Shown in pieces: positions 6,591 through 63,114 of a DNA stretch of 64,000 nt (positions within the stretch are counted from its first letter, which is position 1; each line of letters starts with the position of its first letter). Under the pieces are notes generated by a model that did not search any database, was not told the DNA's origin, and saw nothing but the letters and a program-made list of their open reading frames with translations. The stretch spans positions 1-64,000 of the forward strand of contig JAXGNU010000002.1 of NCBI GenBank assembly GCA_040767805.1. The letters run 5' to 3'. Made by a program: the position numbers and the translations under genes. The stretch is from Thermovirgaceae bacterium (GTDB lineage: Bacteria > Synergistota > Synergistia > Synergistales > Thermovirgaceae).

Positions 6591-7127
6591 TCAGGCCGGT
6601 TTGAACCGGTTCCTGTGGATCTTCCGGAAGGACAGGCCTTCTTTAGGGGTGGGGCGTTTCTCCTCGGAGGGATGGCCCACGGCGATGACGCACAGCACCC
6701 TGAGATCGTTGGGGATGCCTAAAAGACCCCTGACATAATCCTCGGCCGTCTCGCCGGGGGCGTGCTCCCTGTTTCGGACCTGGGACCAGCACGACCCGAG
6801 GCCCAGGCCTACGGCGGCAAGTTGGGCTATGATCGCCGCCAGGGACGAGTCCTCGACCCAGGTGTCGGTGACCTTATCATTTCCCAGGACGACAATGCCC
6901 AGGGACGCGCCCCCGAGGAAGGCCGAATTGCTCCCCCTGGTGGCGGCAAGCCTGTTCAGTAGTTCCCGGTCGTCGACGAAAACGAACTCCCAAGACCTGG
7001 TGTCTCTCCCCGTGGGACTCCGGAGTACGGCCTCCTCCAGGGCAGCCACCTGTTCGTCCGAAAGGGGACGGTCCTGGTACCGCCTGATACTTCTTCGTTC
7101 TCTCAACAGCTCCATCAGGTCCTTCAT
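6591..7127 (-). CDS. Nitroreductase family flavoprotein
   Basis: RRSIRRY, W.F.FV, GLGSCW and AVGHP motifs; ATG at 7127 after AAGGAG. Confidence 0.88.
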   Translation of the reverse strand: MKDLMELLRERRSIRRYQDRPLSDEQVAALEEAVLRSPTGRDTRSWEFVFVDDRELLNRLAATRGSNSAFLGGASLGIVVLGNDKVTDTWVEDSSLAAIIAQLAAVGLGLGSCWSQVRNREHAPGETAEDYVRGLLGIPNDLRVLCVIAVGHPSEEKRPTPKEGLSFRKIHRNRFKPA

Positions 7128-7171
7128 TTCCACCACTCCTTTTGAAAGAGTCCCCGCCTGCCGGGGAAATG

Positions 7172-7197
7172 GAAAAGGGGCGGCTTCCGCCACCCCT
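7172..7197 (-). terminator. Probable intrinsic terminator of candidate sRNA/leader
   Basis: Minus strand AGGGGTGGC-GGAA-GCCGCCCCT-TTT; the G.U pair works only on the minus strand; U-tract is short. Confidence 0.6.
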
Positions 7198-7388
7198 ATA
7201 TTACCTTGGTCGGGTTTTCCGGCGCAGAGACACTTCAAGCAACCACTCCCTGTTCCGTCAAAAACCGTTCCTCGTTACTGGAGCATTACACTTCCAATCT
7301 GGACCGTGATACTTCTGCCGTTGCTCCTTCACTTCCCAAACCGCTTTTCAAGCCGGAAAACCCGACTTCGGGGGCACTTCTCCCCGAT
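7172..7388 (-). ncRNA. Candidate novel small RNA (or long regulatory leader of the nitroreductase gene), ~215 nt
   Basis: Promoter at 7395-7423; 5' hairpin at 7368-7387; perfect 15-bp inverted repeat 7209-7223/7352-7366; six GAAGT motifs; terminator-like hairpin at 7172-7197; no credible ORF. Confidence 0.6.
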
Positions 7389-7394
7389 AACAGG

Positions 7395-7423
7395 ATAATA
7401 CAACAACCCCGAAAGAAAATCAA
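7395..7423 (-). promoter_or_regulatory. Sigma70-type promoter
   Basis: TTGATT-17 nt-TATTAT on the minus strand, A at predicted +1 (7388). Confidence 0.7.
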
Positions 7424-7524
7424 GGGGCAGGAGATACAGGATCGCTTTCGCCTGAGGGAAGGGTGAAAAGAGTGAAACCCCGCCGACAGGAGGTCCTGAA
7501 GGCCAGGACCCTTGCCGCTCCAAT

Positions 7525-7551
7525 AAAAAAATGCGGTCCCAGACCGCATTT
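7525..7551 (-). terminator. Intrinsic terminator ending the 16S-tRNA transcript
   Basis: Minus strand AAATGCGGTC-TGG-GACCGCATTT-TTTT about 20 nt after the tRNA-Ala CCA; a second ATGCGGTCC copy at 7556-7564. Confidence 0.8.
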
Positions 7552-7573
7552 AGGAGGACCGCATATTTATTTT

Positions 7574-7648
7574 TGGTGGAGATGATCGGATTCGAACCGA
7601 CGACTTCCTGCGTGCAAGGCAGGCGCTCTCCCACTGAGCTACATCCCC
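7574..7648 (-). tRNA. tRNA-Ala (TGC)
   Basis: GGGGATGTAGCTCAGTGGGAGAGCGCCTGCCTTGCACGCAGG...GGTTCGAATCC...TCCACCA cloverleaf with encoded CCA. Confidence 0.97.
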
Positions 7649-7656
7649 GATCAGAC

Positions 7657-7733
7657 TGGTGGGCCGAGGAGGATTCGAACCTCCGACCTCACGGTTATCA
7701 GCCGTGTGCTCTAGCCACCTGAGCTATCGGCCC
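7657..7733 (-). tRNA. tRNA-Ile (GAT)
   Basis: GGGCCGATAGCTCAGGTGGCTAGAGCACACGGCTGATAACCGTG...GGTTCGAATCC...CCCACCA. Confidence 0.97.
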
Positions 7734-7781
7734 AAAAAAAGAAACAGCGTACATGAACAGGCGGACAATATGCATAGTGCT

Positions 7782-9393
<1,612 letters not shown>

Positions 9394-40109: not shown

Positions 40110-40149
40110 TACTTTCTGGGCACCGCCTTTCAGTCACACAAAAAAAAAC

Positions 40150-40295
40150 GGATGCCGCCCCTTTTGTCCCGGCGATCGCTCCCCGGTTTTGTGGCGCGGC
40201 TTCGTGGCCCTTCCGTCGGGGCCACCGGGGCATCCGCCGAATTTTCGATGCTCCCCGGACCTCGTCAACTGGCCTGGCCAGTTCTGGCGCTGGGA
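40150..40295 (-). ncRNA. glmS ribozyme (GlcN6P-activated)
   Basis: Minus strand AGCGCCAGAACT...AGTTGACGAGG...ATCGAAAATTCGGCGGATG...ACAAAA...GCGAT...GACAAAAGGGG directly upstream of glmS; predicted cleavage between 40291 and 40290. Confidence 0.92.
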
Positions 40296-40331
40296 TGACC
40301 GCGCTTTCCCACCCTCACCACCGCCGCCCCA

Positions 40332-47295: not shown

Positions 47296-49054
47296 CGGAA
47301 TGGAGCCGGACCGCGCCTCCGAGCACTACACCGCGCCTCCCATCCACGGTCACCGTCATGCCGTCCTCCAGGACGGCCAGGGCCCCCGTGGCGGAGACGA
47401 TGCAGGGTATCCTGAGCTCGAGGCTGACGATGGCGGCATGGCTCGTGAGGCCGCCCTCTTCGCATATTATGGCCGAGGCCTTTCTCATGGCCGGTATGTA
47501 TTCCTTATCGGTCTGCCTTGTCACCAGTATCGCCCCGTCCTTCATCTTGGCATCGGCCTCGGAGCCTGTCAGGGCCTTCACAACCACCCCGGAGGCATCC
47601 TTCTTCAAGAGGGAGAGCCCCTTCAAGAGGGTCTTGGCCACGGTCAGGACCTGGATCGAGTTCGTGCTCCCCGGGCTGCCTATGGGGTACCCCGCGGTGG
47701 CCACCACCATGTCGCCCTCCTTCAGGAGCGACTCCTTACGGGCGGTCTCCATGGCCGACGTTAGCGCCGTCTCGAGGACCTTCTCCTCGGGGACATGGAG
47801 AGGCTCGACCCCCCAGACCAGGGTCAAGTACCTCAAGGTCTCCCGGTTGGGGGTCGCCCCGATAATGGGGGCCGCGGGCCTGTACTTGCTGACCATCTGG
47901 GCTGTCACGCCGCTTTGGGTGAGTGAAAGGACCGCCTGGGCCTTCATCTGGTCCGATATCATCCCCGCGGCCTTGCTGACAGCGTCGGGGATCCCCGGTA
48001 CGCCCGCCTGGCAGACGAAGGGCTTTCTCCACGGGGATCCCCCTTTTTCAGTGCTGCCGATGATCATGGCCATGGTCTTCACCGCCAACACCGGGTAAGC
48101 CCCGTTGGCCGTCTCACCCGAAAGCATCAGGGCATCGGCACCGTCTAGGACGGCGTTGGCGACATCGCTCGCCTCGGCCCTCGTGGCCCGCACGTTCCTT
48201 ATCATGGAATCCAGCATCTGGGTGGCCACAATGACGGGCTTGCCGTGAGAACGGCACCGGTCGATGATCGCCTTCTGCGTTAGGGGGACATCCTCGAGGG
48301 GGATCTCGACCCCCAGGTCGCCCCTGGCCACCATCATACCGTCCACCACTTCAATGATCTCCTCCAGGTTGTCCACCGCGTCGCGGGTCTCGATCTTGGC
48401 GATCACCCTGAGGTCGCCCCCGATCTCTTCCAAAACCCGGCGCGCGTCCATGACGTCCGAACGGTCGCGGACAAAGGAGAGCGCCAGGAAGTCCATGCCT
48501 TTACCTACGGCCCAGCGGATATCCTCTATGTCTTTGGGGGTGAGGATCGGCAGCGACATTTTAACGCCCGGGACGGAGAGGCCCTTCTTTTCACCCAGTT
48601 CACCGCCCACGTTCACGCGGCAGGCGATATCCTTTCCCTCGACCTTTTCCACGATGAGATGAAGGGTGCCGTCGTCGATAAAAAGATCCTGCCCAGGGCC
48701 GACCTCGCCGGGAAGGCCGGGGTAGCTTATGCCGACCCTGGAGGCGTCCCCCTTCTCAAGGGGTTCAGCGGTCAGTATTATCGTGCTCCCGCTTTTTATC
48801 ATCACCGGGCGGTGCCCCTCGAGGGTCCCGGTCCTGATCTCGGGTCCCTTGGTGTCTATCATGGTGCCGATGGGCCGCCCCAGTTCCTCCTCGATCCTCC
48901 TCACCCTGTCCAGGTGGAACCCGTGGGTTCCGCGGTCACCATGGCTAAAATTCAGGCGGGCCACGTCCATGCCCGCCTGAACCATTTTTTTCAGAACTTC
49001 ACGATCCTCGCAGGCCGGCCCGAGGGTGCAAACGATCTTAGCCCGTTTCCTCAT
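47285..49054 (-). CDS. pyk: Pyruvate kinase with C-terminal PEP-utiliser domain
   Basis: [43 protein letters not shown]. Confidence 0.97.
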
Positions 49055-49298
49055 TCTTCCTCCCGCTTTCGACGATTCCGTGGGCCGTGAGTATGTGGGC
49101 CCTGCCCCTTATTTTCATGGCCGAGGTGAACTCCGTGAACTGGGCGATCCACACCTCGCCGGCATCCAGCTTTTCTGAGTGCGCGAACTTCGTCTCCTGC
49201 CCCCTTGTCATGCCTATCACGGAGACCCCGTTTTCCAGGGCCTTTACCACGACGAAATCAGAAAGCACCGAAGGCTTATCTTCCTTCTCCACGGCCAT
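49038..49298 (-). CDS. mtrB: trp RNA-binding attenuation protein (TRAP) homolog
   Basis: DFVVVKA.E.GV.VIG.TRG.ETKF.HSEKLD.GEV.IAQFTE.TSA.K.RG closely matches TRAP. Confidence 0.92.
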
Positions 49299-62063: not shown

Positions 62064-62312
62064 TCAGTCCTTCTTCTCTTCTTCCTCGACCTCCGGGATC
62101 TTTCCAAAGCGGGTACCAGCGTACTTCCTCTGGAACTTTTCTACCCTGCCGGCCTCGGACACCCTGGTACCCCGTTTACCCGTAAATACCGGGTGGCAGG
62201 CGGAACAGACGGCTACCTTTATCTCCTCGACCGTGGAACCGGTAACGAAGGAGTTCCCGCAGGCGCAGGTCACCTTGCATTCACCGTACTTCGGGTGGAT
62301 ATCCTTTTTCAC
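62064..62312 (-). CDS. rpmE: 50S ribosomal protein L31 (Zn-binding type)
   Basis: [29 protein letters not shown] start after GGAGG. Confidence 0.95.
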
Positions 62313-62359
62313 TGAGCGCACCTCCAAGGGAAAACTTTCTTTTCTTGCCACAAGGAAGG

Positions 62360-62388
62360 AATGTAACACAGGGCTCCGGAAAATACAA
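62360..62388 (-). promoter_or_regulatory. Promoter for the rpmE operon
   Basis: TTGTAT-17 nt-TACATT with extended TG. Confidence 0.55.
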
Positions 62389-62407
62389 TAAGGACGGTCT
62401 TCGATGG

Positions 62408-62956
62408 TCAGATATGCATTACCCCCAGCCCGCACCGCTCATGGTGGGCGACGGCATGGTAGGCCGAATCGCCGACAACCGCTACCGCGATCCAGTGCCT
62501 GTTCCGGACGATGCCGATCTTCATGCCAATGCTCGTCTCCAGCATACCAACCGAGATGAACCCGTTCATGGCCTCAAAGGCGGCATGCATCAGGGCGTGC
62601 ATCTCGTTGGAATTTTTCCGGACTATCTCACCGTTCAGGGCGGCCCCGACGACGGCCCTGGTGATCTTCTGGGGGAGATCCCCGGCCAGGCCGCCGACCT
62701 CGGTCGCCACGGCCTTCCAGCCGAACCCGGCGATCTGTTCCTTGAGGACCCTCTCCTCTTCCGGCCCCGTGGTGGAAGCGAGGATGAGGGCGGACCGGCC
62801 TATCTGGCTGTCGTCGGTGAGGGTGACGGTCACCGACAGTTCCATTACCTTCCGCCCGGGGGCTGTTTCGTCACCGTGAGTGCTCAGGGGCGCCCGGTCG
62901 GGTGCCTCTTCCTGTTCGGTTACGTTTTTCCTTGTCGAACCCCAAAAGTCCCGCAT
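62408..62956 (-). CDS. hutP: HutP family RNA-binding antiterminator (start 62956 or 62845)
   Basis: IGR.A..LA, AA....[17 protein letters not shown]...WIAVA..G......HER.GLG..HI. Confidence 0.85.
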
Positions 62957-63114
62957 TATCGTTAAAACCCTTCCTCCCCTACCGCGTGGGGGCCAGAGGC
63001 CCGACACTCGGGCTCGTCGAAGTTGTTCATTGTAAGTATATACTAATAGGGTCCGAGCGAGTAATATGGATCATCATGGGCCGATCACGGCCGAAGAGAC
63101 CTGCGGGGGTGAAC

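Follow-up and report, generated by a model that had tools for sequence, protein, structure and literature searches.

What is encoded between a ribosomal RNA unit and a nitroreductase-family gene in the Thermovirgaceae genome GCA_040767805.1? The window analysed here, 64,000 nucleotides of contig JAXGNU010000002.1, has on its minus strand a stretch flanked by the nitroreductase-family gene and by the terminator with which a 16S-tRNA-Ile-tRNA-Ala unit ends; an earlier note on this DNA had recognised in it a possible stand-alone RNA laid out like a protein sponge. We find that this locus is a previously undescribed small RNA (sRNA) gene, present in five genera of one Synergistales family (Thermovirgaceae in the record titles). 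Its product would be a stand-alone RNA of about 215 nt, running on the minus strand from ~7388 to ~7172. As to function, the reading that we favour, with a probability of roughly 40%, is that of a Csr-like decoy RNA for a protein other than CsrA.

A transcription unit conserved from promoter to terminator

As an independent sRNA gene would, the locus has its own conserved promoter, structure and terminator, and it is represented in RNA libraries, where its ends are those of contigs. The promoter scan found a sole sigma-70-like site in the region 6900-7800, for which shuffled sequences average 0.3: TTGATT-17-TATTAT at 7423..7395 on the minus strand. All 10 homologues aligned share its -35 (CCCTTG) and -10 (TGTAnnAT) letters without variation, and transcription would start near 7388. 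The first element of the RNA is a 5'-terminal hairpin at 7387-7368 (minus strand), UCGGGG/CCCCGA, whose loop, AGAAGUGC, displays GAAGU. The stem has 5-6 bp in the window, and across the 15 sequences of the family described below its 6 pairs are formed in 97.8% of the cells of the alignment, with 1 pair changed on both sides, that is, in a compensatory way.

The body of the RNA is closed by helix P1, a perfect 15-bp inverted repeat that was recovered by self-complementary matches and by the alignment, with its 5' strand, GUCGGGUUUUCCGGC, at 7352..7366 and its 3' strand, GCCGGAAAACCCGAC, at 7209..7223 (minus strand). Between the two strands lies an interior of 128 nt in which C makes up only 15%. 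In the 15 sequences the 15 pairs of P1 are formed in 100% of the cells; 9 are invariant, 3 show one-sided changes and 3 compensatory ones, one of the latter being U-A versus C-G in a split of 8 to 7. The intrinsic terminator (7170..7197, minus strand), found by a terminator scan and again in the alignment, consists of a 9-bp stem with a GGAA loop and a U tract. The hairpin spans 7197..7176, with 7 of the 9 pairs being G-C, and is followed by UUUUCC; across the family 8 pairs are formed in 100% of the cells, and 3 of them are compensatory. Promoter, 5' hairpin, inverted repeat, C-poor interior and terminator-like hairpin are all where the earlier note had drawn them, and the covariation analysis agrees with the helices: none of 500 shuffles reached the observed score, and in a control, sliding the 3' partners by 1-3 columns lowered pairing to 37-64%. 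The fold of the whole unit is mildly more stable than that of shuffled sequences (z = -2.5).

The interior has two unequal parts. Its 5' part (7259..7351, minus strand) is purine-rich and fast-evolving; it cannot be aligned between lineages, the minimum-energy folds differ, and this is the region where other lineages carry tandem arrays. In the window it holds GGAA/GAAGU motifs, with GAAGU at 7331, 7311 and 7290. The 3' part is a conserved block, ACGGAACAGGGAGUGGUUGCUUGAAGUG (7231..7258, minus strand). Within it, GGGAGUGGUUG (7240-7250) is identical in 14 of the 15 members, sits within the family consensus ACGGAAYAGGGAGUGGUUGCYUG and resembles a Shine-Dalgarno (SD) site plus spacer. The block is predicted to take part in a second hairpin, P2 (7225..7252, minus strand), in which CAGGGA (7252-7247) pairs with UCUCUG (7230-7225) and the loop shows GAAGU (7232-7236). 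Across the family the block can pair in this way with a CUCU-type tract that directly precedes the 3' strand of P1, and the loop would then show GGAAG(U). When P2 is held in a fixed register, 77.4% of the cells are paired, with 1 compensatory pair; since the register shifts between lineages, we keep P2 as a candidate only.

Distribution of the RNA in the family

A 271-nt query found one full copy in the 1.65-Mb assembly, which is 80.6% complete, every other match being 26 nt or shorter, so the dispersed copies that would have pointed to a miniature inverted-repeat transposable element (MITE) are lacking. BLAST against 40 related genomes gave homologues at E <= 5e-7 in 8, one of them with two places. 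A covariance model built from 8 sequences then gave strong matches (54.8-224 bits) in 10 of the 19 genomes of the family, which belong to the genera g1-g5: all genomes of g1, g2, g3 and g5, and one of the two of g4. The second g4 genome holds only a fragment of the RNA, with the nitroreductase gene at a contig end. In the genera g6 and g7 (8 genomes) the model found nothing convincing; complete genomes are among those available for the genera without a copy. Possible divergent copies in these two genera were rejected, the weak matches (14-27 bits) being terminator-like and the four inspected lacking P1 and the block; a 180-nt match in genome G015 proved to consist of the last part of a protein-coding gene and the terminator that follows it. 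Among 132 further genomes of the order there were three weak model matches only (26.8-29.5 bits, in G057, G112 and G148).

A scan of all species genomes with a pattern for the invariant block returned 15 loci, of which 8, in Thermovirgaceae/Synergistales records, match the model and 7 are chance hits; the same scan of metagenome contigs returned 19 loci, 14 of them strong model matches. After removal of duplicates, 15 distinct sequences remain, which fall into six lineages: A (the window, G004, L085, L080 and G001), B (G005 and G011), C (G002, G003 and L096), D (G008b, L083 and L089), E (G007) and F (G006). Stem, promoter, block and terminator are kept in the five genera. Relatives have one copy per genome, apart from G008, which has two in the same gene neighbourhood (L013 and L028/L048). 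One of these copies is letter-identical to that of G002 over the 285 nt aligned. With two loci that share their flanking genes, one of them identical to that of G002, the G008 bin probably mixes two organisms. A search of five g6/g7 genomes at E <= 1e-30 did not recover the M20 dipeptidase gene that neighbours the RNA, which made synteny useless as a guide in these genera.

Searched over the whole window, Rfam gave no family at gathering for this RNA. At E <= 10 the window locus had only sub-threshold matches at chance level, and at E <= 1 the loci of seven relatives had only sub-threshold PrrB/RsmZ, ylbH, PhrS and similar chance-level matches. Our literature searches found no description of the RNA. 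Intergenic regions of Thermovirga lienii were screened by Stav et al. 2019 (PMC6429828); the accessible part of that paper names only the SLH motif for them, and its supplementary tables could list related sequences.

The RNA in RNA libraries

Synergistota, which ferment amino acids, are common inhabitants of anaerobic digesters and of oil reservoirs. Part of the 1-kb stretch around the locus is represented in 17 RNA-library runs. We examined four of these (X1, X4, X5 and X7), as contigs rather than reads; the word shares of 20 other runs listed (0.38-0.77) carry no weight here. In X1 a 146-nt contig with a word depth of 10,637 covers 7235-7355, where the nitroreductase contig has a depth of 13.3, and in X4 the interior contig (7237-7370) has a depth of 669.5 against 8.64 for the nitroreductase contig; the word depth of contigs is a poor measure of level and cannot rank genes. 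On these data the RNA is transcribed and probably very abundant, and in two metatranscriptomes it appears to rank among the top transcripts of the organisms that carry it. X5 and X7 have contigs of a variant strain that start in the nitroreductase coding region, cross the terminator without a break and reach 7250 and 7278 respectively. Such bridging contigs do not prove a single transcript, and DNA carry-over could account for them. In X1, a variant-strain contig begins in the interior (7327) and extends as far as the tRNA, at 7600. The gaps in cover, at 7076-7211 in X1 and at 7178-7211 and above 7381 in X4, carry no weight either way.

Contigs of several runs end at 7235-7237 and at 7355-7380, which could reflect processing, priming bias or chimeric assembly. 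Beyond 7237 the X4 contig continues into 255 letters unlike the window, and the X1 end at 7235-7237 is joined to letters that we take to be Illumina adapter. As this end recurs, it may mark a site of processing, or else a hot spot for priming within the loop of the candidate P2.

Motifs and microsatellites in the interior

The earlier note had built its sponge on six GAAGU repeats. The six copies are exactly at the positions listed there (plus-strand ACTTC at 7232, 7290, 7311, 7331, 7365 and 7376), and ACGG occurs four times. The whole window has 134 GAAGT on both strands, or ~0.16 expected per 149-nt span of one strand, and the 4 copies of the interior stand at z = 7.9 against mononucleotide shuffles of that interior. 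We regard the cluster as suggestive and not overwhelming, because the motif was picked post hoc and all 5-mers and windows count. As a functional unit the six repeats did not hold up in the relatives: GAAGU is enriched in 3 of the 7 lineage representatives, with interior copies in A (4), B (4) and C (2), and is absent from the interior in two, those of D and F. The only copies that recur across lineages are the one in the loop of the 5' hairpin and the one behind the invariant block. The most widely shared motif is GGAA(G/A). GGAA is enriched over shuffles in 6 of the 7 representatives (z 2.1-6.5), the exception being G001, with 1 copy (z 0.3). In all 14 members that were folded, the motif nucleotides are predicted to be unpaired to a greater degree than other interior positions. 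What remains of the sponge proposal is a layout like that of a protein-sponge RNA and a motif that is not the classical Csr one; the GAAGU set as its unit is given up.

In two lineages the purine-rich region has turned into a microsatellite. Lineage D carries a 7-nt unit, (AGGAAAC), in 6, 8 or 14 copies, the longest array having 14.0 copies at 100% identity, and lineage E carries a 9-nt unit, (ACCGGAAGA), in a tandem array of 15.4 copies; a tandem-repeat search of the window's own RNA found none. A comparison of two D loci over 2,421 nt shows a single mismatch and a difference of six repeat units, from which it follows that the array mutates by slippage far faster than by point substitution. 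Since loci so nearly identical differ in repeat count, the number of putative binding sites seems free to vary, as a decoy would predict, and in this respect the variation in repeat number fits what is expected.

A proposed decoy for an RNA-binding protein

Among known systems, the design comes closest to the Csr/Rsm RNAs that titrate a protein, because of the protected 5' end, the clamp, the expandable platform and the apparent abundance. In the mechanism that we favour, the 5'-end hairpin, the 15-bp helix and the terminator would enclose or follow a largely unpaired, purine-rich interior, and this interior would offer several GGAA(G/A)/GAAGU motifs, some of them in hairpin loops (the 5' hairpin and the candidate P2). 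The abundant decoy RNA would capture a protein with affinity for GGAA-type motifs in RNA and keep it bound, much as CsrA is captured by the Csr/Rsm RNAs. The shared promoter and terminator would, in addition, govern the level of transcription that arrives at the nitroreductase gene, 29-45 nt further on. Like the CsrB/RsmZ sRNAs (Rfam clan CL00106), this is an apparently abundant sRNA that ends in an intrinsic terminator and presents many short G-G-A motifs in predicted loops or single strands, with a copy number that varies between relatives. The GGA motif is the binding site of CsrA, a protein that sRNAs sequester (PMC4894983). The best Rfam scores, though below threshold, are also of this kind: 25.1 bits for PrrB_RsmZ in G002, 23.6 in G008b and m089 and 11.1 in the window, where gathering is 44, and 12.1 bits for the CsrB model, where gathering is 71.

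The RNA nevertheless differs from the Csr/Rsm RNAs in two respects. None of the 11 genomes of g1-g5, which are 80-96% complete, gave a match to CsrA (PF02599); across the order the same search was positive in 61 of 121 genomes, as it was in 3 controls. The scores just given also lie far below gathering. Since the exposed GGA-containing motifs are there and the other two marks of membership, CsrA in the genome and a score at gathering, are lacking, the RNA would probably work like the Csr/Rsm RNAs without being one of them. It is further set apart from them by its 15-bp clamp helix, its invariant SD-like block and its true microsatellites, features that Csr RNAs are not known to have. Within the family, CsrA is encoded in 2 of 2 g6 genomes and in 1 of 6 g7 genomes; the patterns of CsrA and RNA are loosely complementary, which could be due to chance or shared ancestry. 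The RNA occurs exactly in those genera of the family where CsrA was not found, and it belongs to no described family.

We counted the depth in RNA libraries, the near-RsmZ scores and the retention of the RNA in lineage D, where the nitroreductase gene is gone, in favour of a decoy. Several points weigh against it. Searches for CsrA, Hfq and RRM gave no partner protein, those for Hfq and RRM_1 having covered the window's own, 80.6% complete genome. Apart from the two lineages with arrays, the motifs are only modestly enriched, and in G001 they are not; the unpaired state of the purine-rich motifs follows in part from base composition. Conservation is highest in one SD-like block, not in a repeated motif, for which the decoy model has no explanation, and the RsmZ-like scores rest largely on the terminator. 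Retention in lineage D is weak evidence for an independent function, because the gene loss may be recent, and the position of the RNA inside the former 5' untranslated region (UTR) of the nitroreductase gene fits a role in cis equally well.

Should the RNA be a decoy for a protein, it would point to a global regulator of post-transcriptional events, so far unrecognised, in a phylum for which, to our knowledge, almost nothing is known of RNA-based regulation, and the expansion of a binding motif as a microsatellite would be a simple way for decoy capacity to evolve. A more specific version can be imagined, a new class of decoys, in a lineage that has lost CsrA, in which a slippage-prone microsatellite sets the number of binding sites, so that strains tune or phase-vary the titration of an oligomeric, repeat-reading regulator while the same unit meters the nitroreductase gene. 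We consider this version distinctly unlikely; a hexamer of the HutP kind is conceivable as the protein titrated, given that the 7-nt array agrees with its XAG-N4 spacing.

A possible leader of the nitroreductase gene

The RNA could instead be mainly a cis-acting 5' leader, or attenuator, of the nitroreductase gene, in which transcripts begun at the shared promoter would mostly end at the terminator, a signal (a protein on the interior, a ligand, temperature or redox state) would raise read-through, and the short RNA would be a by-product. This alternative, already named in the earlier note, gained weight in the follow-up; we regard it as possible though doubtful, and it and the decoy are not mutually exclusive. 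The gene (6591..7127, minus strand; 178 aa, from the open reading frame (ORF) list and a profile match) starts in the window 43 nt past the last base of the RNA, and a promoter of its own was not detected there. It follows the RNA in 10 of the 13 loci that have downstream DNA, with a start codon 29-45 nt past the last aligned base of the RNA and no conserved promoter between the two. Its orthologues in g6 and g7 (55-60% amino acid identity) have an ordinary promoter directly upstream and no RNA; the element was therefore inserted into, or grew from, the former 5' UTR of the gene, which must depend on read-through or on an undetected promoter. The X5 and X7 contigs that bridge the RNA and the coding region across the terminator are in line with read-through, with the same reservation about DNA carry-over.

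Against a leader stands the fold. The antiterminator search by folding gave nothing convincing, only weak alternative pairings by eye, and the terminator remains the best fold in 5 of the 5 members folded, even when the 5' strand of P1 is left out. P1 itself, 15 G-C-rich base pairs of nearly invariant sequence, is unlike a switching helix, and the terminator lies 13 nt from it with no overlap. No Rfam riboswitch or leader matches the locus. Moreover, the three loci of lineage D keep the RNA without the nitroreductase gene: promoter, P1, block and terminator are intact, and only 32 nt separate the end of the RNA from the stop codon of the dipeptidase gene, which is convergent to it. These loci are near-identical strains (95-98% nucleotide identity), so the gene may have been lost recently.

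Some terminated 5'-leader RNAs, namely riboswitch-derived sRNAs, also act in trans. The locus resembles these in its order of promoter, structured RNA, terminator and gene within 29-45 nt, and in the apparent accumulation of the short product, and differs from them in that no known aptamer matches it, no alternative antiterminator fold was found and the RNA outlasts the gene. If it is a leader, it represents a new class of attenuator for a widespread family of flavoenzymes; either way, it offers a compact target of ~215 nt with clear conserved and variable parts.

Some minor features of this region were also seen. A hairpin, CCCCG-GCAGG-CGGGG, lies at 7152-7166 (minus strand) between the terminator of the RNA and the ribosome-binding site of the nitroreductase gene; lineages A and C have other small hairpins at the same place. 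The hairpin of the window might modulate translation. In a g7 genome (L142, G010:C1:2155430-2156476) the orthologous nitroreductase gene is tandemly duplicated.

The invariant block as a possible active site

In an unlikely third explanation, the RNA is a base-pairing or ribosome-mimicking regulator in which GGGAGUGGUUG followed by UUG or CUG is the active site and the interior a mere spacer. The SD-like block would then pair with pyrimidine-rich targets or with the 16S 3' end, or be a decoy initiation site. This would account for the most conserved internal element, its likeness to a translation initiation region and its pairing with the adjacent CUCU tract in the candidate P2, which is like an SD/anti-SD helix. 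As a specific mimic of the nitroreductase initiation region, however, the block is not special: of 6,962 candidate starts in the genome that bear an SD, 219 reach an equally good score. Nor is there a conserved reading frame behind it, the frames differing between lineages. A small ORF behind the block was therefore rejected; in the window it is fused in frame to the nitroreductase ORF (ORF 6591..7238), and this fusion is not conserved in G001. In addition, the predicted accessibility of the block is only 0.25-0.56.

A possible insertion element

The perfect 15-bp inverted repeats around ~130 nt could also be the termini of a MITE-like insertion, domesticated or decaying, with no function beyond termination. 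The absence of the element upstream of the same gene in the sister genera, the fast evolution of the interior and its slippage-prone repeats would agree with such an origin. What makes it quite improbable is the single full copy in the genome and the one copy per genome in relatives, at conserved synteny, together with retention in five genera, compensatory changes in P1, the invariant block, the conserved promoter and the high word depth in RNA libraries.

HutP and TRAP as putative partners

HutP and TRAP, which the earlier note had offered as speculative partners of the RNA, would make a special case of the decoy, and a very improbable one. Both genes are real. The TRAP gene (49041-49298, minus strand) scores 126.1 bits against an NCBI MtrB cut-off of 117, and the HutP homologue (62411-62845) matches Pfam at 6e-39, though its score of 49 bits falls below the NCBI HutP equivalog cut-off of 155. 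TRAP-binding RNAs have about 9-11 (G/U)AG triplets with 2-3-nt spacers. In the window's genome, which is 80.6% complete, no canonical array of this type that would account for its TRAP was found: a strict regular expression found none, and a chain search found none scoring 6.5 or more, the best chain of the genome scoring 5. The RNA, in turn, does not supply one, since a (G/U)AG chain of at least 3 with 2-3-nt spacers is present in none of the 15 members, and TRAP as the partner is not supported.

A study of HutP (PMC2425495) describes a protein that reads XAG, with in-line cleavage at U498, U505 and U512, 7 nt apart, and three motifs per face; in the RNA bound, XAG comes in two clusters of three, with a spacing of about 7 nt within a cluster and a 12-17-nt linker between the two. 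The lineage D array, (CAG-GAAA) in 6-14 copies, has this 7-nt period, and period-7 AG chains of 7-14 occur in the three D loci only. The other 12 of the 15 members are at chance length (n = 2), the window RNA included, whose longest chain has 2 members (p = 0.74 against shuffles), nor does the 9-nt array match. HutP is therefore not borne out as a general partner.

Like the HutP-hut terminator RNA and the TRAP-trp leader, the RNA shows repeated purine triplets on predicted single strands beside a terminator, and both proteins are encoded in the window. It differs from them in having no periodic triplets in the window or in those 12 members and a motif region that does not overlap the terminator. 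Furthermore, both proteins are present in all seven genera, including g6 and g7, which have no RNA. HutP need not even be an orphan, because a urocanase gene lies ~19 kb from hutP on the same contig.

As to the two genes themselves, TRAP is encoded in 19 of the 19 genomes of the family, and in the window its gene lies between those for pyruvate kinase and dnaE. In the region 62064-63007 (minus strand), the HutP homologue has an N-terminal extension of ~50 aa that is conserved in the family, and it is followed by rpmE and thyX and not by hut genes. A purine-rich GUCGGG...CCCGAC "leader" upstream of hutP was discarded, as it is coding and belongs to this extension.

Housekeeping RNAs

A divergent 6S or other housekeeping RNA, suggested by the size of ~200 nt and the long closing stem, can be virtually dismissed: the interior is hypervariable, carries microsatellites and shows no conserved central bubble, the RNA is limited to five genera, canonical 6S (58.7 bits) and SRP RNA (59.8 bits) are encoded on other contigs of the genome, and at E <= 10 there was no 6S match in 7050-7600 and no SRP, RNase P or full tmRNA match on the locus. 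The one tmRNA match at this threshold falls on the 3' end of the neighbouring tRNA-Ala.

Other RNA genes of the window

The rRNA genes of this genome are unlinked. The 16S-tRNA-Ile-tRNA-Ala unit (7574-9393, minus strand) ends at a strong terminator at 7551..7529 with no 23S gene behind it, and the only 23S match lies inside another contig (C4:42415-45601), where it spans 3,187 nt against a model of 2,925 positions and may contain an insertion. A glmS ribozyme (88.2 bits; 40144-40302, minus strand) is located upstream of the glmS gene, as expected.

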